Of a DNA stretch of 32,835 nucleotides, positions 3,693 through 31,030 are shown piece after piece. The position numbers and the translations under genes were made by a program. Numbering within the stretch: the stretch's first letter is position 1; each line of letters opens with the position of its first letter. Under the pieces are notes generated by a model that worked only from the letters and a program-made list of their open reading frames with translations, ran no database searches and was not told where the DNA came from. Origin of the DNA: Candidatus Nealsonbacteria bacterium (GTDB taxonomy: Bacteria; Patescibacteriota; Minisyncoccia; Minisyncoccales; MHMH01); contig JAUYKD010000038.1 in assembly GCA_030700195.1 (NCBI GenBank), positions 1 through 32,835 of the forward strand, read 5' to 3'.

Positions 3693-4451
3693 ATGGACTT
3701 AAAAGGAAAAGTGGCAATTATTACCGGAGCTAGAAGGGGAATGGGCAGAACCCATGCCTTGGCTTTGGCTAAAGCTGGAGCAAAAGTGGTGGTTTCAGAT
3801 ATTTCTTTGGAAGATTGTCAGAAAGTGGCCAAAGAGATTGAAAAGCAGAAAGGAGAGGCCTTAGCCGTCAAGTGCGACGTGTCTAAAAAAGAGGAAGTTG
3901 ATAAAATGATTCAGATGGCTGTGAGTAAATGGGGAAGAATAGATATTTTAGTTAATAATGCGGGTATCTGCCAATTTAAGCCATTTTTAGAAATGACCGA
4001 AAAAGAATGGGATTTGACTTTAGATATCAACCTTAAAGGATATTTCTTTTGCGCCCAAGCGGTTGCCAAGCAAATGGTTAAGCAAAAATCAGGGGTCATA
4101 GTTAATATTGCTTCTGTAGCCATGGGCCAACAGGGAATCGGCTTTCCCAATATTGCTCACTACTGCGCTTCCAAGGGCGGGATTGTCGGTTTGACCGAAG
4201 CTTTAGCTATTGAATTGGCTCCATATAATATCAGGGTCAATGCTGTTTCTCCGGGGATGATTGAGACCCCGATGATTAGTTCCGTTAAGCAGGACAAAAA
4301 AACAATAGAAGCTATATTGTCTCGGGTGCCCCTGCGAAGAGTGGGCAGGCCGGAAGAGGTCTCCAACCTTGTTTTATTCTTAGTCTCGGAAGATTCTTCG
4401 TATATAACCGGTTCAACCGTGGTGGTGGATGGTGGCTGGCTGGCCGCTTAA
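3693..4451 (+). CDS. Short-chain dehydrogenase/reductase (FabG-like)
   Basis: ITGARRGMG cofactor motif, NNAG, catalytic Ser and YCASK (YxxxK), 252 aa. Confidence 0.85.
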   Translation: MDLKGKVAIITGARRGMGRTHALALAKAGAKVVVSDISLEDCQKVAKEIEKQKGEALAVKCDVSKKEEVDKMIQMAVSKWGRIDILVNNAGICQFKPFLEMTEKEWDLTLDINLKGYFFCAQAVAKQMVKQKSGVIVNIASVAMGQQGIGFPNIAHYCASKGGIVGLTEALAIELAPYNIRVNAVSPGMIETPMISSVKQDKKTIEAILSRVPLRRVGRPEEVSNLVLFLVSEDSSYITGSTVVVDGGWLAA

Positions 4452-4507
4452 GGGCGATGAGAAATTATTTCTCATCTTAACCTTCTCTCGGTTTCGCCTC
4501 GCTCGGT
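4452..4507 (+). repeat. Family 2 bipartite hairpin element, degenerate second hairpin
   Basis: GGGCGATGAGAAattaTTTCTCATCTTAACCTTC...CTCGGT starts right after the SDR stop codon. It has the same ...CTCGGTGCTTGA end as the copy at 5432-5490. Confidence 0.6.
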
Positions 4508-4662: not shown

Positions 4663-4818
4663 ATGGAAGGATATTGCGTAAAATGCAAAGCTAAAAGAGA
4701 AATGTCAGAGGCCAAAGAAGTGGAAATGAACGGCAAGGGTGGAGTTAAGAGAAGGGCTATGACTGGAAAGTGCCCCAAGTGCGGAACCAAGATGTTTCGA
4801 ATTATGGGCAAGGCCTAA
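4663..4818 (+). CDS. DUF5679-like small zinc-ribbon protein (51 aa)
   Basis: Not in ORF track (under 60 aa). Hand translation: MEGYCVKCKAKREMSEAKEVEMNGKGGVKRRAMTGKCPKCGTKMFRIMGKA. CxxC...CxxC pattern as remembered for DUF5679. The antisense 60-aa ORF 4629-4811 is rejected. Confidence 0.6.
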   Translation: MEGYCVKCKAKREMSEAKEVEMNGKGGVKRRAMTGKCPKCGTKMFRIMGKA

Positions 4819-4873
4819 GGCGAAGGGAAATTCGTTCTCTTCTTTAACTTCGCTTCCATAAATGGAGCTCGTT
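4819..4873 (+). repeat. Family 2 bipartite hairpin element
   Basis: GGCGAAGGGAAattcGTTCTCTTCTTTAACTTCG-CTTCCATaaATGGAG-CTCGTT, starting right after the stop codon at 4816-4818. Confidence 0.6.
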
Positions 4874-5390: not shown

Positions 5391-5490
5391 CTTCATTCCC
5401 TTTATCCCGCAAAGCGGGACTCGGATCGTGGTCGATGAATCTAAAGATTCATCTCCACCTTCGTCCCGCAAAGCGGGACTCGGTGCTTGA
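5391..5490 (+). repeat. Family 2 bipartite hairpin element, two tandem units
   Basis: Unit a is ...TCCCGCaaagCGGGACTCGG. Unit b is GATGAATCTaaAGATTCATCTCCACCTTCGTCCCGCaaagCGGGACTCGGTGCTTGA. The hairpin of unit b is the reverse complement of the one at 14455-14474. Confidence 0.75.
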
Positions 5491-8452: not shown

Positions 8453-8546
8453 ACCGAGTCCCGCGTAGCGGCAATGAGATAAATCTCATTTTGAACTTCA
8501 CTGCAGTTCGTTGGTTGAAGGTAGAAGATGAGGTTCGCTCATCGCC
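8453..8546 (-). repeat. Family 2 bipartite hairpin element, two units, between rpmB and tRNA-Pro
   Basis: Read on the minus strand: GGCGATGAGcgaaCCTCATCTTCTACCTTC...then...GCCGCTACGCGGGACTCGGTAAATAATT. The first hairpin contains the rpmB stop codon. Confidence 0.7.
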
Positions 8547-9428: not shown

Positions 9429-9533
9429 CCGAGTTCCGCGTAGCGGGACGAAGGTGGAAAAGAGGGCGAAGTCCTCTTTGACTTTAACCGAGTCCCGCAT
9501 AGCGGAACGAAGGTTCAAAGAATTTTATTCTTT
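9429..9533 (-). repeat. Family 2 bipartite hairpin element, two units (inverted orientation)
   Basis: CCGAGTTCCGCgtagCGGGACGAAGGT + AAGAGGgcgaagtCCTCTT, then CCGAGTCCCGCatagCGGAACGAAGGT + AAAGAATtttATTCTTT. Confidence 0.75.
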
Positions 9534-12902: not shown

Positions 12903-12908
12903 TCTTGA

Positions 12909-13036
12909 CCCCGTTAGAAGTCTTAGCCAGAAAAAATTATTTTAATTTTTTCTGCAAGGCATAACGAGGGTATAACTAAAAACAAAGGTTTATCTGAAAT
13001 TAGCTTTGTGATATATAAGACAGACTTCTAACGGGG
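12909..13036 (+). repeat. Family 1 stem-closed element, long form (copy A, 128 nt)
   Basis: CCCCGTTAGAAGTC...GACTTCTAACGGGG termini, flanked by TTGA/TTGA. The internal sequence is very similar to copies C and D. Confidence 0.8.
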
Positions 13037-13065
13037 TTGACAATTCTTTCCAAGTTTACTAAGAT
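13037..13065 (+). promoter_or_regulatory. Candidate tuf promoter abutting element A
   Basis: TTGACA (13037-13042; its first 4 nt are the direct repeat flanking the element), 17 nt spacer, TAAGAT (13060-13065). Confidence 0.4.
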
Positions 13066-13077
13066 AATAGCTAGTTG

Positions 13078-13130
13078 CCAAGTCCCGCGCAGCGGAACAA
13101 AGGCAAAGATGAGAACGAAATTCTCATCGC
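13078..13130 (-). repeat. Family 2 bipartite hairpin element (inverted orientation)
   Basis: CCAAGTCCCGCgcagCGGAACAAAGGCAAA-GATGAGAAcgaaaTTCTCATCGC. Confidence 0.7.
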
Positions 13131-14370: not shown

Positions 14371-14476
14371 AGCGAGTCCGCCTGAGGCGGACGAAGCTTA
14401 AGATGAAATTTATTTCATCGCCCAGCGAGTCCCGCTTAGCGGGACGAAGCTGGAGATGAATCTTTAGATTCATCGA
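14371..14476 (-). repeat. Family 2 bipartite hairpin element, two units (inverted orientation)
   Basis: AGCGAGTCCGCCtgaGGCGGACGAAGC + GATGAAATttATTTCATCGCC, then AGCGAGTCCCGCttagCGGGACGAAGC + GATGAATCTttAGATTCATCGAC. Confidence 0.8.
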
Positions 14477-16237: not shown

Positions 16238-16284
16238 AAATAAATTTTAATCTTCAACTTCGTTCCGCTATAGCGGAACTCGGT
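16233..16284 (+). repeat. Family 2 bipartite hairpin element
   Basis: GATGAAAATaaATTTTAATCTTCAACTTCGTTCCGCtataGCGGAACTCGGT. The rplD stop TGA is inside the first hairpin. It is followed by AAATAATTATG (rplW start). Confidence 0.75.
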
Positions 16285-17606: not shown

Positions 17607-17645
17607 ATTTCTTTTCTACCTTCGTCCTGCTTCGCAGGACTCGGT
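17598..17645 (+). repeat. Family 2 bipartite hairpin element
   Basis: AAAGAAATaaATTTCTTTTCTACCTTCGTCCTGCttcGCAGGACTCGGT. The rplB stop TAA is in the first hairpin. It is followed by AAATAATTATG (rpsS start), identical to the rplW context. Confidence 0.75.
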
Positions 17646-17653
17646 AAATAATT

Positions 17654-17980
17654 ATGTCAAGAAGTTTAAAAAAAGGTCCATATGTCGATGAAAGGGTATT
17701 GAGAAAGCTGAAGAATTTAAAGCCGGGAGACAAGGCCATTATTAAGACATGGGCAAGAAGCTGCGCTATAAGTCCTGAAATGATTGGGTTTACCTTTGGA
17801 GTTCATAATGGCAAAGAACACGTGCCAGTCCACATTACTGAAGATATGGTCGGACATCGCCTGGGCGAATTTAGTTCAACGACTAAGTTTGGCAGGCATG
17901 GAGGCAGAATGCAGAAAGATATTGAGACGAAAGAAGCTGGTAAAGAAACTCAAAGCATAAAAATCGAACAAAAAGAATGA
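17654..17980 (+). CDS. rpsS: 30S ribosomal protein S19 with C-terminal charged extension
   Basis: MSRSLKKGPYVDE...FGVHNGKEHVPVHITEDMVGHRLGEF. Confidence 0.95.
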   Translation: MSRSLKKGPYVDERVLRKLKNLKPGDKAIIKTWARSCAISPEMIGFTFGVHNGKEHVPVHITEDMVGHRLGEFSSTTKFGRHGGRMQKDIETKEAGKETQSIKIEQKE

Positions 17981-17981
17981 A

Positions 17982-18117
17982 CCCCGTTAGAAGTCTTAGA
18001 ATTTAAAATTTTGATGAGAAAATTTTTAAATTTGAATAAATAAAATATATCAACTATAAAAATCAACTATGTCCAATAATAATTATCATAGAACAGAAAA
18101 AGCAACTTCTAACGGGG
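17982..18117 (+). repeat. Family 1 stem-closed element, long form (copy B, 136 nt, divergent interior)
   Basis: CCCCGTTAGAAGTC...(A)ACTTCTAACGGGG, flanked by TGAA/TGAA. The interior is unrelated to copies A, C and D. Confidence 0.75.
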
Positions 18118-18506
18118 TGAAAAGCAAAGCCAAACTCAACTATTTAAGAATAGCTCCGAGAAAAGTAAGATTGGTGGCCGATATAATTCGCGGCAAATCT
18201 GTTTTTGACGCCAGGAATATTTTGGGCTTTACTATTAAGAAAGCGGCTCATCCCATGTTGAAGCTTTTGAATTCAGCCGTAGCTAATGCCGGGGATATGC
18301 CAGTAGAGAATCTTTTCATATCAAAAGTTGAGGTTAATGAAGGCCCGAAATTAAAAAGGTCCAGGCCCAGAGCTCGGGGCAGAGCATACGAGATACAGAA
18401 AAAGACAAGTCATATTATTATTGTTCTGGATGAAAAAATAACAAAATCTAAAAAACCCAGAAGAAAGGCAAAACCTTCCGCTGGTCTAAAAAAACATGAG
18501 TCATAA
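18117..18506 (+). CDS. rplV: 50S ribosomal protein L22
   Basis: GTG 18117 gives (M)KSKAKLNYLRIAPRKVRLVADIIRGK, the usual spacing to the RKVRLVAD motif. The track ATG 18069 is in-frame but inside element B. Lys-rich C-terminal tail overlaps rpsC. Confidence 0.85.
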   Translation: MKSKAKLNYLRIAPRKVRLVADIIRGKSVFDARNILGFTIKKAAHPMLKLLNSAVANAGDMPVENLFISKVEVNEGPKLKRSRPRARGRAYEIQKKTSHIIIVLDEKITKSKKPRRKAKPSAGLKKHES

Positions 18507-19133: not shown

Positions 19134-19544
19134 ATGCTTTATCCTAAAAAAGTAAAACATAGAAAATGGCATAGGGGTAAAAGAAGAGGCAAGGGAATAG
19201 AAACCAGAGGAACTGAGCTGAGCTTTGGCAGTTTTGGCTTAAAAGCCCAGGACGGTAAATGGCTAACTGCCCGTCAGATTGAAGCTGCCAGAAGAGCAAT
19301 CATTAGATATTTAAAGAAAGGCGGCAAGCTTTGGATAAGGATTTTTCCGGATAAGCCTGTAACCCAAAAAGGGACAGAAGTGCCGATGGGCGGCGGCAAA
19401 GGAGGAGTTGACCATTATGTTTCTGTGGTTAAGCCGGGTAGAATGCTTTTTGAGTTAGAGGGGATAAAAGAAGAGATGGCCAGAGAAGCGTTTAAGAAAG
19501 CAACTACCAAGTTGCCAATTAAGACTAAATTTGTTAAGAAATGA
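19134..19544 (+). CDS. rplP: 50S ribosomal protein L16
   Basis: [15 protein letters not shown]...[11 protein letters not shown].... Confidence 0.95.
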
Positions 19545-19545
19545 A

Positions 19546-19677
19546 CCCCGTTAGAAGTCCTAGCCCGAAAAAATTTAGATTAAATTTTTTCTGCAAGGCA
19601 ATAACGAGGGAATAACCAATAATAAATGTTTGTCTGAAATTAGCTTTGTGCTATATTAAGATAGACTTCTAACGGGG
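19546..19677 (+). repeat. Family 1 stem-closed element, long form (copy C, 132 nt)
   Basis: CCCCGTTAGAAGTC...GACTTCTAACGGGG, flanked by TGAA/TGAA. The last G is the first base of the rpmC GTG. Confidence 0.8.
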
Positions 19678-19910
19678 TGAAGATACAAGACCTTCGCCAA
19701 AAAACAAAGCAAGAAATCGCAAAACTCCTGGTTGATAGCCGGGAACGTTTAAGATTATTAAGATTTGACCTGGCAGCCGGCAAAGTGAAAAATGTCAGGG
19801 AAATCAGACAGCTTAAAAAAGATATTGCCAGAATATTAACATTGCTAATTGAGCTCCGCGATAGCGGAGCGAAGATAAAGAAGAGAATAAAATTCTCTTC
19901 GCCTAAATAA
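19677..19910 (+). CDS. rpmC: 50S ribosomal protein L29, C-terminal about 18 aa encoded by a family 2 repeat
   Basis: (M)KIQDLRQKTKQEIAKLLVDSRERLRLLRFDLAAGKVKNVREIRQLKKDIARILT is L29. The tail LRDSGAKIKKRIKFSSPK is read from the hairpin element 19851-19903. Confidence 0.9.
   Translation: MKIQDLRQKTKQEIAKLLVDSRERLRLLRFDLAAGKVKNVREIRQLKKDIARILTLLIELRDSGAKIKKRIKFSSPK
19851..19903 (-). repeat. Family 2 bipartite hairpin element inside the rpmC 3' end (inverted orientation)
   Basis: GAGCTCCGCgataGCGGAGCGAAGATAAA-GAAGAGAATaaaATTCTCTTCGCC. Confidence 0.7.
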
Positions 19911-19914
19911 CATG

Positions 19915-20046
19915 CCCCGTTAGAAGTCTTAGCCAGAAAAAATTTGAATTAAATTTTTTCTGCAAGGCAATAACGAGGGTATAACCAATAATAAATATTT
20001 GTCTGAAATTAGTTTTATGCTATATTAAGACAAACTTCTAACGGGG
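19915..20046 (+). repeat. Family 1 stem-closed element, long form (copy D, 132 nt)
   Basis: CCCCGTTAGAAGTC...(A)ACTTCTAACGGGG, flanked by CATG/TATG. The rpsQ ATG starts 2 nt after the element. Confidence 0.8.
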
Positions 20047-20047
20047 T

Positions 20048-20311: not shown

Positions 20312-20409
20312 ATTTTTCATTTCCAACTTTACCCTCGTTAGTCAATGAAAAAGGGCGATGAGAACTTTGTTCTCATCTTCACCTTCGTTTTAATAAATTA
20401 AAACTCGGT
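20301..20409 (+). repeat. Family 2 bipartite hairpin elements (one degenerate and one full unit)
   Basis: ATGAAAAATaaATTTTTCATTTCCAACTTT...CTCGTTAGTC, then GGGCGATGAGAACtttGTTCTCATCTTCACCTTCGTTTTAATaaATTAAAACTCGGTC. The rpsQ stop lies in the first hairpin. Confidence 0.7.
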
Positions 20410-20411
20410 CA

Positions 20412-20783
20412 ATGATCCAAACAAGAACAATGTTAAAAGTAGCGGATAACAGCGGGGCAAAAATCCTTCAGTGTTTTCAGATATTGGGAGGCACCAGACA
20501 CAGATACGCAAAGTTGGGAGATATTATTGTCGGCACGGTTAAAAAGGCAGAGCCGAGAAAAGTTGTTAAAAAGCACGCGGTTGTCAGAGCGGTCATTGTC
20601 AGACAAAGAAAGGAATTAAGGCGGCCGGGAGGCACTTATATCAGGTTTGATGATAATGCCTGCGTTATTCTGGAAGAAAAGACAAAAGAGCCAAAGGGTG
20701 GAAGAATTTTCGGTCCAATTGCCAAAGAAGTCAAAGAAAAAGGATTTGATAAAATAGCCGCTATGGCCGAAGAATTAGTGTAG
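20412..20783 (+). CDS. rplN: 50S ribosomal protein L14
   Basis: MIQTRTMLKVADNSGAK...GDIIVGTVKKA.... Confidence 0.96.
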   Translation: MIQTRTMLKVADNSGAKILQCFQILGGTRHRYAKLGDIIVGTVKKAEPRKVVKKHAVVRAVIVRQRKELRRPGGTYIRFDDNACVILEEKTKEPKGGRIFGPIAKEVKEKGFDKIAAMAEELV

Positions 20784-20837
20784 GCGATGAGAATAGAATT
20801 CTCATCTTCAACTTCGTCCCGCTGCGCGGGACTCGTT
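20783..20837 (+). repeat. Family 2 bipartite hairpin element
   Basis: (TA)GGCGATGAGAATagAATTCTCATCTTCAACTTCGTCCCGCtgcGCGGGACTCGTT, followed by CAATG (rplX start). Confidence 0.8.
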
Positions 20838-26164: not shown

Positions 26165-26911
26165 ATGATTACCATAAAAACAAAAGAAGAAATCAATATA
26201 ATGTCAGAAGGCGGTAAAATCCTGGCAGGAATCATGAAGGAATTGGAAAAAATGGTTAAGCCGGGGATTACTACTCAAACATTGGACAGGGCTGCTGAAG
26301 CCCTGGTTTTAAAATCAGGCGGCAAGTGCTCGTTTAAAGAGTATGAAGGCTATCCTAGCTGTTTATGCGCTTCTATTAACAACGAACTCGTACATTCGCA
26401 GCCATCAGAAAGAGTTTTAAAAACTGGTGATATTATTTCGCTTGATTTGGGTATTTTATATAAGGATTATCATTCTGATATGGCTCTGACCGTGGCTGTC
26501 GGCAAAATTTCTCCTGAAGCCCAGCGGCTCATCAGAATTACTAAAAAATCGCTTAAAAGAGGAATTAAAAAAGTAAGGCCGGGCAATACTTTTGGAGACA
26601 TAGGCAATACAATCCAAAGATATATTGAAGATCAGGGATTTGGCGTTGTTAGAGATCTTTGCGGACATGGTATAGGTAAGATACTTCACGAAGATCCCCG
26701 TATTTTAAATTACGGCAAGCGGGGATCAGGAGAAGAAATCAAACCGGGCATGGTTTTTTGTTTGGAGCCCATGGTAACAGCCGGGGATTATAATATTAAA
26801 AAAAGCAGTGATGGATATGGGTTTGAGACAAAAGACGGCTCTTTATCCTGCCATTTCGAGCATACAATAGTTGTCACAAAAAATGGTTGTCGTATCTTGA
26901 CAGGATTGTAA
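26165..26911 (+). CDS. map: Type I methionine aminopeptidase
   Basis: ...HGIGKILHEDP...CLEPMV...HFEHTIVVTKNG.... Confidence 0.95.
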   Translation: MITIKTKEEINIMSEGGKILAGIMKELEKMVKPGITTQTLDRAAEALVLKSGGKCSFKEYEGYPSCLCASINNELVHSQPSERVLKTGDIISLDLGILYKDYHSDMALTVAVGKISPEAQRLIRITKKSLKRGIKKVRPGNTFGDIGNTIQRYIEDQGFGVVRDLCGHGIGKILHEDPRILNYGKRGSGEEIKPGMVFCLEPMVTAGDYNIKKSSDGYGFETKDGSLSCHFEHTIVVTKNGCRILTGL

Positions 26912-27293: not shown

Positions 27294-27343
27294 ATCAAAA
27301 AGAGGCATGATGGTTTTTTGACCTAATGCCTCTTTTTGATTTG
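27294..27343 (+). terminator. Long hairpin (15-bp stem) after orphan ORF
   Basis: ATCAAAAAGAGGCAT - 17 nt loop - ATGCCTCTTTTTGAT, then TT. Confidence 0.5.
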
Positions 27344-27375
27344 CGAATATTTATGGTAATATAATTTAATATTAT

Positions 27376-27409
27376 ATGATAGCCGAACTCAAAGTTTTTT
27401 TAATAGCTA
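27376..27409 (+). pseudogene. Duplicated 5' end of the membrane-protein gene that starts at 28327
   Basis: ATGATAGCCGAACTCAAAGTTTTTTTAATAGC versus 28327 ATGCTGGCTGAACTCAAAGTTTTTTTAATAGC. It reads MIAELKVFLIA, then runs into the transposase-flanking hairpin and stops. Confidence 0.65.
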
Positions 27410-27418
27410 TAGAATCTA

Positions 27419-28243
27419 CACAGACCCGACCTGTGTTAATCGACCTGTGTTAATCTGTATTAATTTATATTAATTTATGCCTTATAGAAAACAACCATTT
27501 GAAACCGGAAAAATTTACCATGTAGTTACAAGAAGTCTTGATAATAATTTGCTTTTTAAAAATACAAACGATTATTATAGAGGGATATTTTCTATTTATG
27601 AGTTTAATACTACAAAAGCAATTAAAATTAGAGAGCGCAGAAAAGCACGTGTAAAAGAAAAACAGATTATAAAAAACACAGACCCGACCTGTGTTACTAT
27701 AGATGCTATAGATAAGAGGGATTTATTAGTTGAAATTATTGCTTTTTGTTTGATGCCGAATCATATTCATTTATTATTGAGGCAAACCAAAAAAGATGGG
27801 ATAGTCAAATTTATGGCTAAGTTCGGATCGGGTTACGCTAGTTATTTTAATAAAAAATATGGACGAAAGGGATATGTTTTTCAAAATAGATTTCGTTCAG
27901 TAGAAATAAAGAATAACGAACAATTAAAAATAGTTTTTGCATATATCCACATTAATCCAACATCTATTATTATCTCAAATTGGAAAGAGGAAGGCATAAA
28001 GGATATAAATAAAGTGCTTGAATTTATAGAAAACTATAAATGGTCAAGCTATAGCGATTATCTCGGGAAAATTAATTTTCCTTCGGTAAGCAACAGAAAG
28101 TTTATTTTAGAATTATTCGGGAACAAAGAAAAATGTAAAAGATTTGTTGATGCTTGGGTACGATATAAGGCTAAAATTAAGATAGAAGAACTTTTTATAG
28201 AATAGAAATAGAAATACATAGAAATACACAGGTCGGGTCTGTG
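27419..28243 (+). mobile_element. IS200/RAYT-like unit: Y1 transposase gene bracketed by inverted 17-nt hairpin sequences
   Basis: Left CACAGACCCGACCTGTG (27419-27435). Right, its reverse complement CACAGGTCGGGTCTGTG (28227-28243). A third copy lies inside the CDS at 27677-27693. Confidence 0.7.
27477..28205 (+). CDS. HUH Y1 tyrosine transposase, IS200-like / REP-associated (RAYT-like)
   Basis: YHVVTRS..., HUH motif in CLMPNHIHLLL, YVFQNRF, catalytic-Tyr region FAYIHINP. Confidence 0.8.
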   Translation: MPYRKQPFETGKIYHVVTRSLDNNLLFKNTNDYYRGIFSIYEFNTTKAIKIRERRKARVKEKQIIKNTDPTCVTIDAIDKRDLLVEIIAFCLMPNHIHLLLRQTKKDGIVKFMAKFGSGYASYFNKKYGRKGYVFQNRFRSVEIKNNEQLKIVFAYIHINPTSIIISNWKEEGIKDINKVLEFIENYKWSSYSDYLGKINFPSVSNRKFILELFGNKEKCKRFVDAWVRYKAKIKIEELFIE

Positions 28244-28271
28244 ATAGCTGCTGAACTGTGATAGCTGCTGA

Positions 28272-28319
28272 ACAATAGTTGTCACGAAAAATGGAGCAAA
28301 AGTGCTCACTGTGATATAA
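28272..28319 (+). pseudogene. Remnant of a methionine aminopeptidase 3' end
   Basis: Translates TIVVTKNGAKVLTVI*. The first 23 nt (ACAATAGTTGTCACGAAAAATGG) nearly match the intact map at 26864-26886, then the two diverge. Confidence 0.6.
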
Positions 28320-28326
28320 TATAAAA

Positions 28327-28785
28327 ATGCTGGCTGAACTCAAAGTTTTTTTAATAGCCATGTCGCCGATTTTTGAATTAAGAGGGTCAATTCCTATTGC
28401 TTTTGGCGTTTATGGCTTGCCTGCTTGGTCGTCTTTTATTATTTCAATCATCGGCAACTTGGTTCCGGTCGTTTTTATTCTTTTATTGCTTGAAATCGTT
28501 TCTGGTTTTTTGAGCCGCCGTATCTATTTCTTTAACCGTTTTTTTGCTTGGCTGTTTGAAAAAACAAGGAAAAAGCACGCTGCTAAATTTGAAAAGTGGA
28601 AGGAATTGGCTTTGGTTATTTTAGTGGCTATTCCTTTGCCTTTTACCGGAGCTTGGACAGGCTCATTGTGCGCATTTGTCTTCGGCATTCCTTTTAAGAA
28701 AGCGTTTCCCTTAATAGCTATTGGAGTTATTATTGCGGGTATAATAGTTACTTTTACCACTTTAGGAATCATTAATTTCATATGA
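28327..28785 (+). CDS. Small polytopic membrane protein (small multidrug-export-like, COG2426-type)
   Basis: 152 aa, 4 TM. The ELRGSIPIA N-terminal motif is recalled from that family. Assignment tentative. Confidence 0.5.
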   Translation: MLAELKVFLIAMSPIFELRGSIPIAFGVYGLPAWSSFIISIIGNLVPVVFILLLLEIVSGFLSRRIYFFNRFFAWLFEKTRKKHAAKFEKWKELALVILVAIPLPFTGAWTGSLCAFVFGIPFKKAFPLIAIGVIIAGIIVTFTTLGIINFI

Positions 28786-29418: not shown

Positions 29419-29922
29419 ATGGAAGATATTATAAGCGGTCATTTCTACAATCCGACCAAAGGCAACCTTACTTTTGACGAAGTTATTAAAGAAATCTTCG
29501 GTTACATAGCTCAAGATAAGGAGAAGTTCTACGACATTGTCGTTGGGTGCGATTCTTCTTCGGGAGAGGAGCCGACCTTTCCGGTTGTTATAGTCGCCTT
29601 GAGAAAAGGCGGAGGAGGAAGGTTTTTCCTTAAAAGAATAAAATATTCTTCAGACAGGAAGTTTTACAATTGGAAAGAAAGAATTTTGAATGAGGTTTAT
29701 CTTTCCTGCCAGATGGCTCTTATTTTGAAAGAAAAAATAGCCGGCCTTAAAACAAATTTTCTTAACTATGAGTTTCGTTATATTCATGCTGATGTGGGGG
29801 AGAACGGAGCTACCAAAGACATGGTTAAAGAAGTAACCGGCCTTATCCGGGGCAATGGATTTGAGCCAAAGATTAAGCCAGAATCCTATGTTGCTTCGGT
29901 AGTGGCAGACAGATATGCCTAA
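29419..29922 (+). CDS. YkuK/DUF458-like RNase H-fold protein
   Basis: FYNPTKGNLTFDEVIKEI...VVGCDSS...VVIVALRKGGGGRFF pattern recalled from the YkuK family. Tentative. Confidence 0.5.
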   Translation: MEDIISGHFYNPTKGNLTFDEVIKEIFGYIAQDKEKFYDIVVGCDSSSGEEPTFPVVIVALRKGGGGRFFLKRIKYSSDRKFYNWKERILNEVYLSCQMALILKEKIAGLKTNFLNYEFRYIHADVGENGATKDMVKEVTGLIRGNGFEPKIKPESYVASVVADRYA

Positions 29923-31030
29923 AAAGATAATTGTTGCTATGTCGGGAGGGGTTGATTCCTCTGTGGCAGCTGCCCTGCTCAAGAAGCAGGGGTTTGTTGT
30001 TATCGGGGTTTTTATGAAGTTTTGGCTTGCCCGCCGAAGCCCTGGCGAAGGCGGGAAAGCTTTTAACAGGTGCTGCTCTTCTGACGCAGAAAGAAGAGCG
30101 AGAGAAGTTGCTTCAATTCTTGATATTCCTTTTTATGTTTTTAATTTTGAAAAAGAGTTTAAAAAGAGAGTGGTTGATTATTTTTTGAAAGAGTATGCTG
30201 CGGGCCGCACTCCCAATCCTTGCGTTGTTTGCAATAAAGACATTAAATTCGGTCTTTTGCTGGAACGAACTTTATCTCTCAAAGCTGATTTCATCGCTAC
30301 GGGCCATTATGTTCGCAAAGCAGGCAATAAATTATTCAAAGGAAAAGATAAAGAAAAAGACCAGAGTTATTTTTTATGGCAGCTTTCTCAAAAACAGCTG
30401 AAACATTCTTTGTTTCCGTTGGGCTCTTATACTAAGAAACAAGTAAAAGAGATGGCCAAGAAGTTTGGCTTGCCGGTTTTATCAATTCCTGAATCCCAGG
30501 AAATTTGTTTTGTTGAAAATACTATTGGCGAGTTTTTAACAAAATACATAAAACAGAAAAAAGGTGAAATAGTTGATGCTCAAGGAAAAGTTTTAGGTGA
30601 GCATCAGGGTTTAAGCTTATATACTATCGGCCAGAGAAGGGGATTAGGTTTTATTGGTGGCCCCGCCTTCGCTAAACCCGCCTGCCGGCGAGGCAGGGCT
30701 TCGGCGGGCAAGCCTTATTGGGTGTTGAGAAAGGATTTGAAAATGAATGTTTTGGTTATAACCAAGGACGAAGAAGATTTATTTGAAAAAGAATTATTTT
30801 TCAAAGAAGCCAATTGGATTTCTGGAAAATCTCCTAAGGTTCCAGCAATTCTTAAAGCGACAATCAGATACCGGCATAAAGTTGTTCAAGGAGTTTTGCA
30901 AAAAGGCAACAGGTTTATTTTTAACAAGCCTCAAAGAGCCATAACTCCGGGCCAATCAATAGTTTTTTACCTGCCTCGCCGGCAGGCAGGTAAAGGCCAG
31001 GAACTTTTAGGCGGAGGCATCATCCGGTAG
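29915..31030 (+). CDS. mnmA: tRNA 2-thiouridine(34) synthase MnmA, with three in-frame GC-rich palindromic inserts
   Basis: PP-loop MSGGVDSSVAA, GRTPNPCVVCNKDIKF, ATGHY, KDQSYFL. Confidence 0.9.
   Translation: MPKKIIVAMSGGVDSSVAAALLKKQGFVVIGVFMKFWLARRSPGEGGKAFNRCCSSDAERRAREVASILDIPFYVFNFEKEFKKRVVDYFLKEYAAGRTPNPCVVCNKDIKFGLLLERTLSLKADFIATGHYVRKAGNKLFKGKDKEKDQSYFLWQLSQKQLKHSLFPLGSYTKKQVKEMAKKFGLPVLSIPESQEICFVENTIGEFLTKYIKQKKGEIVDAQGKVLGEHQGLSLYTIGQRRGLGFIGGPAFAKPACRRGRASAGKPYWVLRKDLKMNVLVITKDEEDLFEKELFFKEANWISGKSPKVPAILKATIRYRHKVVQGVLQKGNRFIFNKPQRAITPGQSIVFYLPRRQAGKGQELLGGGIIR

Follow-up and report, generated by a model that had tools for sequence, protein, structure and literature searches.

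The 32,835-nt stretch analysed here (the window), contig JAUYKD010000038.1 of a Candidatus Nealsonbacteria genome, carries at 27477–28205 (+ strand) an intact gene for a 242-residue HUH/Y1 nuclease that resembles the REP-associated tyrosine transposases (RAYTs; REP, repetitive extragenic palindrome). We conclude that this locus is REPtron-like, a single-copy RAYT-type nuclease gene lying between inverted copies of its own cognate hairpin, and that it is not an IS200 copy. A third copy of the hairpin is read in frame within the coding sequence, and the three copies at each gene are kept identical while their sequence drifts between lineages through compensatory stem changes. We give an even chance to the explanation that a flexible linker of the protein tolerates the internal copy as an in-frame cognate hairpin, and that overwriting by the enzyme or by hairpin-templated repair keeps the three copies identical. 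A REP read in frame within a RAYT gene is already known from subclass 2.4 of the TnpAY1 enzymes; the case described here has a different position and recurs over a large gene family of the Patescibacteria.

The 17-mer CACAGACCCGACCTGTG occurs exactly three times in the 32.8 kb, at 27419–27435 (+), 27677–27693 (+) and 28227–28243 (−), with no match elsewhere in the window even when up to 3 mismatches are allowed, and none of 100 shuffles gave any match. Sequence and folding define the upstream copy by a stem CACAG/CTGTG and a loop ACCCGAC; because only 42 nt separate it from the ATG, it probably lies in the 5' untranslated region (UTR). The downstream copy, recognised in the same way, is inverted and lies 22 nt past the stop codon. 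The internal copy belongs to a perfect 21-nt repeat, ACACAGACCCGACCTGTGTTA, found at 27418–27438 and 27676–27696 (+), the hairpin proper spanning 27677–27693; it encodes N67-T-D-P-T-C-V73, 26 codons upstream of H96. Folded as single-stranded DNA, the three sites form stems of 5–7 bp with loops of 5–7 nt (−3.1 to −5.2 kcal/mol). A first-pass annotation of this DNA had described the inverted flanking hairpins, the in-frame third copy and a degenerate tandem decay behind the left hairpin, and had set this hairpin apart from the abundant repeats of the window; our analysis recovered the copies at the same coordinates and agrees on the other two points. Tandem Repeats Finder resolves the decay into duplications of the hairpin 3' half plus spacer that extend up to the start codon (27427–27478, +), namely a 14-nt unit, CGACCTGTGTTAAT, present 2.1 times at 27427–27455, and three degenerate 10-nt units at 27445–27478. 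That annotation did not contain a 17-nt tandem repeat, CTGTGATAGCTGCTGAA, present 2.1 times at 28239–28273 (+), which begins with the 3' arm of the downstream hairpin and lies just outside it. Tandem duplications of one hairpin arm with a spacer of 9–12 nt stand beside the flank hairpins of many related loci (designated L plus a number), with a different sequence each time; examples are L098:470–499, L100:96–127 and the flanks of L001, L007, L008, L010 and L024. Such duplications may have been left behind by cutting and rejoining, or by slippage that the hairpin induced. A sigma-70-like promoter candidate (TTGATT-18-TATAAT, 27336–27365, +), which is a consensus match only (10/12), would place the upstream hairpin in a leader of ~105 nt; the number of promoter-like matches in the region does not exceed the shuffle expectation.

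The in-frame copy that had been noticed at this single gene proved to be a conserved trait of a family. A profile search of 1.84 billion representatives yielded 449 clusters (50% identity) at E ≤ 1e-30, almost all from Patescibacteria, and at E ≤ 1e-5 there were more than 1,600 homolog clusters (90% identity), mostly ~60% identical and full length. We fetched 80 related loci from species-representative genomes, nearly all of them Patescibacteria. Locus after locus, a repeat scan revealed a GC-rich hairpin 25–80 nt upstream of the start, 0–80 nt past the stop and at nt ~170–230 of the coding sequence, with a hairpin sequence that varies from locus to locus; throughout the 80 loci, the hairpin of each enzyme is the one found at its own gene. 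In 45 of 70 full loci, the 105-nt stretch of coding sequence before the HUH motif has an exact word of 13 nt or more in common with a flank, and in 30 of 70 with both flanks, against 2 of 70 for a control stretch of the same size after the motif; the two flanks have such a word in common with each other in 51 of 70. Searching from the best flank hairpin, we found a copy with at most 20% mismatches in the coding sequence of 52 of 71 loci, and in 43 of 71 it lies 15–40 codons before the first HUH histidine. A cross-locus control, in which hairpins were compared with the genes of other loci, gave 16 matches in 705 comparisons, 12 of which fell in the pre-HUH stretch. Of 46 repeats shared by coding sequence and flank and picked by repetition alone, 35 contain a stem of 5 bp or more, compared with 47 of 920 random pieces (5%).

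The internal hairpin reaches members that are 34–43% identical to the window protein (L053, L056, L057, L060 and L063). It occurs in all three reading phases, its stems measure 6–21 bp, its position and length vary, and in some loci, such as L038 and L051, it is an inverted dimer. Given this variation in phase, stem length and form, the internal site is conserved while its content turns over. Two other candidate observations were rejected. A scan of metagenomes for the 17-mer gave 17 contigs with one match each, of unrelated composition and without a RAYT homolog; these were regarded as chance matches that carry no information on copy number. RAYTs truncated at the N-terminus, starting at about residue 75, were considered as deletions between the upstream and internal hairpins and turned out to be assembly artefacts: the contig ends at the internal hairpin in L051:1–60 and L054:1–50, and a run of N stands between duplicated sequence in L052:4237–4337. 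Many apparently truncated 'transposases' in databases are thus explained by contigs that end, or carry runs of N, at the internal hairpin of the three-copy repeat. As a separate observation, perfect DnaA-box nonamers (TTATCCACA) are enriched in the loci, with 34 in 620 kb against ~5 expected; 15 of the 34 lie within 150 nt of a RAYT gene end (L039, L043, L058, and also L036, L046, L051, L066 and L067), and the outer hairpin arms of some loci consist of such nonamers, as in CTGTGGATAA...TTATCCACAG.

Within a locus the copies match each other far better than they match those of other loci. Of 57 loci, 22 have an upstream copy and 22 a downstream copy that matches the internal one base for base; both flanks do so in 15, and in 44 at least one flank copy lies within 2 bases of the internal copy. 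The median mismatch fraction between the internal copy and its own flanks is 0, whereas against other loci it is 0.20 at a protein identity of at least 70%, and 0.38–0.42 for more distant loci. The nearest relative, L098, has a protein with 74% identity and is syntenic, its RAYT gene lying between map and the gene of a small export protein. All three of its hairpin copies read CACCGGCCCGACCGGTG, where the window has CACAGACCCGACCTGTG: from window to L098, every copy has exchanged A-T for C-G at pair 4:14 and an A.C mismatch for G-C at pair 6:12. The remaining intergenic DNA of the two loci is unalignable and synonymous sites are near saturation (dS ~1.1). The identical compensatory stem changes in all three copies indicate concerted evolution. 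In L099 (64% identity), the loop ACCCGAC is kept and the stem is wholly different (GCGGAG/CTCCGC), again in all three copies, the upstream one being flipped. Generally, members of a subfamily have loop and inner stem in common, and their outer stem covaries. Paralogs in a single genome have different hairpins (L011/L018/L033, L007/L048 and L041/L045). In 21 of 30 loci the two flank copies are inverted relative to each other; the internal copy may agree with either of them.

Profile and fold searches support the assignment of the protein to the HUH/Y1 family, on the RAYT side rather than the IS200 side. The first-pass annotation had called the product an IS200/RAYT-like Y1 enzyme with HUH and tyrosine motifs and had proposed a profile search; the product matches Pfam PF01797 (Y1_Tnp) well above the curated threshold (E 7e-11; 42.7 bits, cut-off 23), and all 106 aligned homologs match it too. 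The top NCBIfam match is NF047646 (REP_Tyr_transpos), with 49 bits under a cut-off of 80, and NF033573 (transpos_IS200) scores 16 bits against a cut-off of 55. The metal-binding motif N95-H96-I97-H98 is encoded at 27759–27770 (+) and the catalytic tyrosine motif Y156-I-H-I-N-P, of the class 2 (RAYT-type) Y1 form according to the published motif table (PMC6006769), at 27942–27959 (+). Over the 106 homologs the HUH and Y-x-x-x-N-P residues are invariant (N95, H96, H98, Y156 and N160), with P161 invariant or nearly so, and the family consensus is NH[FI]H, FQ, YIHLNP and a KWSSY 'SS' tail in ~238–240 aa.

An AlphaFold2 model based on the 106-sequence alignment, which comprises two subfamilies, reached a mean predicted local distance difference test score (pLDDT) of 91.5 and a predicted template modelling score (pTM) of 0.87; it supersedes a model from 24 close homologs only, which was unusable (pLDDT 41). 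The modelled order is β1-αA-αB-β2-β3(HUH)-αC-β4-αD(Y), with β1 at residues 13–20, αA at 30–42, αB at 51–67, a loop, β2 at 85–92, β3 at 96–103 and αD at 147–159; H96 and H98 lie on β3, Y156 lies on αD, and further helices extend to residue 233. A structure search with the model gave as best PDB match 4ER8, E. coli TnpA_REP with a bound REP hairpin (E 2.6e-7), followed at ranks 2–13 by IS200/IS605-type transposases (ISDra2, IS608, IS200; including 2XMA and 2A6M). In the model the hairpin-encoded residues 67–73 form the loop between the strongly basic helix αB (K49–K66) and strand β2, and the lowest pLDDT of the core, ~75, is found in block 71–80. The open reading frame (ORF), the Pfam match, the model and the substitution pattern all indicate that the gene is intact. 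The first-pass annotation had considered that it might be a decayed, single-copy remnant with the hairpin confined to it; within the 32.8 kb CACAGACCCGACCTGTG is indeed found only at this gene, and the gene is not decayed, as omega is 0.15 and the catalytic and family-invariant residues are present.

Relative to its L098 ortholog, the RAYT gene has a synonymous divergence (dS) of 1.07 and a nonsynonymous divergence (dN) of 0.158 (omega 0.15), and the neighbouring export-protein gene has a dS of 1.14 and an omega of 0.155. Since these dS and omega values are indistinguishable, the two genes have diverged together under purifying selection, and the RAYT gene has been co-inherited with its neighbours since at least the split from the nearest known relative. 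A caveat on vertical inheritance is that the site is empty in closer relatives. The export-protein gene follows map after 11 nt in L102 and L105/L106 (L102:1960–2000, L105:2640–2680), with export proteins 78–81% identical to that of the window, and in L103/L104 the site is occupied by a 72-aa ORF, without a RAYT gene; the RAYT module is therefore an insertion.

Duplicated target sequence lies on both sides of the module. The target junction, made up of the map stop region, the spacer and the beginning (11 codons) of the export-protein gene, is present as a left copy at 27356–27410 (+) and, as its direct repeat, a right copy at 28311–28361 (+) that contains the real start (28327) of the export-protein gene. 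A 16-codon remnant of the 3' end of map, encoding TIVVTKNGAKVLTVI and a stop, lies at 28272–28319 (+); its first 23 nt (28272–28294) repeat 26864–26886 (+) within the real map gene with 22 of 23 bases identical, and these two repeats bracket an insertion islet of ~1.4 kb that holds an orphan ORF and the RAYT module. The left junction copy supplies the TATAAT which, together with the upstream TTGATT, makes up the best promoter-like site 5' of the RAYT gene (a consensus match only). The export-protein gene itself appears to be leaderless (28312–28329): an extended −10 box (TGaTATAAT, 28312–28320) made from the last codons and the stop of the map remnant ends 6 nt 5' of the ATG at 28327, an arrangement that is repeated at the empty site of L105. 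In L100 the same islet contains a different RAYT (37% identical, SDHFH motif, gene 135–854) with the hairpin CACGAGTCCGGGACTCGTG at both flanks (96–127 and 855–872) and no internal copy; a 19-nt similarity between its RAYT linker and the map-end remnant is AT-rich, with 79% identity, and was treated as chance. The small ORFs at the junction are unrelated among relatives (101 aa in the window, 66 aa in L098 and 72 aa in L103). The map/export-protein junction is a small hypervariable islet with nested target duplications. IS200-type (IS200/IS605) transposition makes no target duplication and so does not account for the 23–55-nt duplications that flank this Y1-enzyme module.

E. coli TnpA_REP (RAYT, YafM; PDB 4ER8) shares with the window protein the HUH/Y1 fold, the Y-x-x-x-N-P motif and a C-terminal extension past the catalytic core, and the E. 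coli REPtron likewise is a single-copy gene between inverted copies of its cognate hairpin. Both were reportedly described in 2012, by Ton-Hoang and by Messing and their colleagues. The two proteins have a sequence identity of only ~15%, however, and the window protein is longer (242 vs 165 aa), with an extra basic helix and linker before β2 and a third hairpin in its coding sequence. Of the features by which RAYT loci are classically recognised, the window locus lacks the 5' GTAG foot and shows no sign of dispersed copies in the 32.8 kb, and the protein falls below the threshold of the curated RAYT model, REP_Tyr_transpos (49 vs 80 bits). IS200-type transposases have ~130–150 aa and a Y-x-x-x-Q motif and work as dimers; IS200/IS605 copies are multiple and near-identical, have their ends on one strand and are often accompanied by tnpB. 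With IS200/IS605 TnpA (IS608, ISDra2) the window protein shares the HUH/Y1 core and, presumably, the recognition of a small hairpin in single-stranded DNA, but none of these IS200 features of size, motif, near-identical copies, one-strand ends or tnpB is seen at the window locus.

The only RAYT genes described as carrying an in-frame REP are those of TnpAY1 subclass 2.4, or Bertels group 4 (Quentin et al. 2018, PMC6006769), in which the cognate REP lies in a variable peripheral region of the RAYT coding sequence, with the frame intact, in addition to flanking REPs. The insertion site is a different one, that of the window lying before the HUH motif (αB:β2, 26 codons). Judged by published motif tables rather than by subclass hidden Markov models, subclass 2.4 has WQ, YIxNNP and a median of 194 aa, whereas the Patescibacteria family has FQ, YIH[ITAS]NP and ~240 aa; the REPs of subclass 2.4 are GT[AG]G-footed and long or 'double foot', those of the Patescibacteria short and without that foot; and the hosts of subclass 2.4 are mainly Cyanobacteria and Bacteroidetes. 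On the same basis, the family comes closest in motifs and size (NH[FI]H, FQ, YIHLNP, KWSSY 'SS' tail, ~238 aa) to subclass 2.1 (Bertels group 1, 'TIRYT'), which is described as having NH[YF]H/FQ/Y[IV]HLNP, the SS tail, a distal DnaA_C-like or other helix-turn-helix (HTH) and no REP-like hairpins near the gene (PMC6006769). In contrast, hairpins are the rule in the Patescibacteria family, and neither DnaA_C nor another HTH domain was detected in the C-terminal tail of the 106 members. Rickettsia palindromic elements (RPEs) and intragenic REPs are also short palindromes lying in frame in genes that still function (Di Nocera et al. 2013, PMC3733652); these elements, however, occur at scattered sites in unrelated housekeeping genes, whereas here the host gene is that of the presumed processing enzyme, and the site is homologous family-wide. 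In the literature available to us we found no paper that connects RAYT, TnpAREP or REPtron with Patescibacteria or the candidate phyla radiation (CPR).

We propose that the enzyme would bind its hairpin once the DNA is single-stranded, and would cut and rejoin beside it. With three such sites within 900 bp of the place where the enzyme is made, strand transfer or hairpin-templated repair would again and again copy one site over another. E. coli TnpA_REP is known to bind and cleave hairpins and to carry out strand transfer at them (PMC3479197), and the in-frame REPs in tnpAREP genes of subclass 2.4 have been read as tolerated insertions in a peripheral loop (PMC6006769). We infer that the window protein binds and cleaves its hairpins, and that it is the enzyme itself which homogenises the copies, and neither slippage during replication nor template switching. 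The internal copy would be a tolerated passenger and a target of its own gene product, dispensable for catalysis and presumably without a function of its own; in a flexible surface loop between αB and β2, just before the HUH strand, it would cost the protein little. Several observations weigh against this explanation. The orientation of the three copies varies freely, which would not be predicted if a strand-specific enzyme copied them in a fixed way. Beside the hairpins no GT[AG]G-like foot or other conserved cleavage motif was found; the bases adjoining the three copies are A/T-rich and not conserved among the window, L098 and L099, and some relatives have TTAC...GTAA feet instead of GT[AG]G. 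No excision or junction forms were present in the assembled contigs of the source runs; 'joints' obtained by comparing these contigs with the locus came from other species with different gene orders and are no evidence for or against excision. Most related loci, within flanks extending up to 4 kb, have no cognate copy farther than 250 nt from the gene, and a few have 1–3; with no dispersed copies in the 32.8 kb or in most relatives' flanks, the enzyme may have no REP population to act on. Finally, the internal copy is recognisable in ~60% of loci, at 34–100% protein identity, and this persistence may reflect selection on it, since a pure passenger would be expected to be lost often.

Such selection is central to an explanation to which we assign a rather low probability, in which the internal hairpin is a functional cis element for feedback and selection, beyond copying, keeps the three sites matched to the specificity of the protein. 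Binding of the extruded hairpin, on the non-template or lagging strand, could for example block transcription or replication, or cutting could limit the number of active gene copies. The internal copy persists over proteins 34–100% identical to that of the window (43 of 71 loci), always in the same linker straight after the strongly basic helix (K49–K66); inner stem and loop are conserved within subfamilies and the outer stem is variable, as if the protein read the loop; and E. coli TnpA_REP is auto-inhibited (PMC3479197), which makes tight self-control a theme of the family. However, the internal orientation relative to the coding strand is not fixed (CCCG-type loops point 6 times one way and 4 times the other, and the flanks flip too), ~40% of loci have no recognisable internal copy in the linker, and the L100 RAYT has none. 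That the hairpin-to-hairpin cassette is instead an autonomous IS200/IS605-like insertion sequence, with the outer hairpins as its ends and the internal copy as an accident or alternative end, we regard as very unlikely. It is true that the cassette is inserted relative to close relatives (L102 and L105/L106 with their 11-nt junction, L103/L104 without RAYT), that target sequence is duplicated on both sides, that the same islet holds another RAYT (37% identical) in L100 and that homologous cassettes have unrelated surroundings, such as the tRNA gene next to the one in L099. Yet there is a single copy in 32.8 kb, paralogs in the same genome are not near-identical but diverged, with hairpins that differ, and the dS of the L098 ortholog equals that of the neighbouring gene. 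Moreover, 21 of 30 loci have ends inverted relative to each other, whereas IS200/IS605 ends lie on one strand; the protein has Y-x-x-x-N-P (class 2) instead of the IS200 Y-x-x-x-Q, and 242 aa with a C-terminal tail; there is no tnpB; and IS200/IS605 elements are known to make no target duplication. Little probability also attaches, in our judgement, to the hairpins acting as RNA stem-loops that control a potentially toxic nuclease, the upstream one as an attenuator in the 5' UTR, the internal one as a site of pausing or processing and the downstream one as a stabiliser or terminator, and that are untouched by the enzyme and owe their identity to ordinary gene conversion. Their positions fit this, the upstream copy lying between the promoter-like site and the ATG, and in L099 directly between the tRNA gene and the ATG, and the downstream copy just past the stop; the stem forms in either orientation, in keeping with the free orientation; and REPs are known 3' mRNA stabilisers. 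An RNA structure would need pairing only, though, whereas exact identity within a locus and loop conservation within subfamilies are seen, and conversion tracts of 17–30 nt would be very short for homology-dependent recombination. The stem mismatches, 23 G.T vs 17 A.C, show no excess of G.U-compatible pairs on the sense strand and are not informative as a test of RNA-level selection.

The window as a whole comprises the str/S10/spc ribosomal-protein operons of a low-GC (~39%) Patescibacteria genome, with every listed gene on the + strand; its nearest database relatives carry the label Candidatus Nealsonbacteria, and the public runs containing the sequence are groundwater metagenomes only. The local gene order is secY, adk, map, the 101-aa orphan ORF, the RAYT-like gene, Sm_multidrug_ex (PF06695; the small multidrug-export-family membrane protein referred to above), tpiA, an RNaseH-like gene and mnmA, and no tnpB was found among the neighbours of the RAYT-like gene. 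The enzyme had been noted earlier as the only recombinase in the window, and a scan of + strand ORFs with 90 aa or more over ~40–31030 (the last 1.8 kb lying outside the scan) revealed no second one; two of these ORFs, 1487–2641 and 2642–2914, gave no Pfam match.

Other repeats are abundant in the window. A REP-like hairpin, ACCGA-GTCCCGC-nnn-GCGGGAC-GAAGGT, is present in 11 copies with conserved asymmetric feet, in both orientations and mostly in ribosomal-operon spacers; GTCCCGC-nnn-GCGGGAC lies at 5404–5420, 5463–5479, 8458–8474, 9433–9449, 9492–9508, 13082–13098, 14376–14392, 14429–14445, 16262–16279, 17624–17640 and 20816–20832. It is the cognate hairpin in 0 of the 80 related RAYT loci; the evidence points to the abundant repeats not being cognate to the window enzyme, with nothing linking the enzyme to them, and the processing enzyme of the GTCCCGC repeat, if any, lies outside the window. 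An element resembling miniature inverted-repeat transposable elements, of ~135–140 nt and with terminal inverted repeats ACCCCGTTAGAAGTC...GACTTCTAACGGGGT, occurs in four copies between ribosomal-protein genes (12903–13037, 17976–18118, 19540–19678 and 19909–20047), two of which share 92% identity over 133 nt. A third family of hairpins, GATGAGAA-nnn-TTCTCATC (4450–4485, 4816–4851, 20351–20386 and 20780–20815), often adjoins the GTCCCGC hairpin to give composite modules like bacterial interspersed mosaic elements. The mnmA ORF (29915–31030) contains GC-rich hairpins CCTGCC-nnnnn-GGCAGG at 30681–30697 and 30966–30994, one with an 11-bp stem and TTTAC...GTAAA feet, and a perfect 21-nt inverted repeat (30024–30044/30694–30714); its product has 371 aa compared with 310–353 aa in relatives, and its palindrome CCTGCCTGCCGGCAGGCAGG recurs in L018, L041 and L065, with close variants in L003 and L038. 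The mnmA hairpins may be in-frame palindromic insertions in a housekeeping gene.

The family described here bears on three questions about RAYTs: their in vivo role, whether they really act on their REPs, and how each enzyme stays matched to its hairpin. It provides a compact natural test bed, with enzyme and substrate within 900 bp, the substrate written into the gene of the enzyme and three copies visibly co-evolving; specificity determinants (loop and inner stem vs outer stem), self-targeting and the mechanism of concerted evolution are testable with short oligonucleotides and recoded genes. For genome annotation, the hairpin triplet breaks metagenome assemblies inside the gene and leaves 'truncated transposases' in databases, and RAYT-like genes of candidate phyla are annotated just as 'transposase', which wrongly implies active insertion sequences in streamlined genomes. 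A further reading seems doubtful to us, though worth stating. In many host genomes the enzyme may have no substrates other than the three copies at its gene, which would make the system closed and self-referential rather than REP-spreading, and the clade would have fixed its own DNA substrate in the coding sequence as a selected self-recognition site through which the enzyme senses or limits its own gene by feedback at the DNA level; if true, such a site would couple enzyme specificity to hairpin evolution and explain how the enzymes and hairpins of paralogs stay matched.

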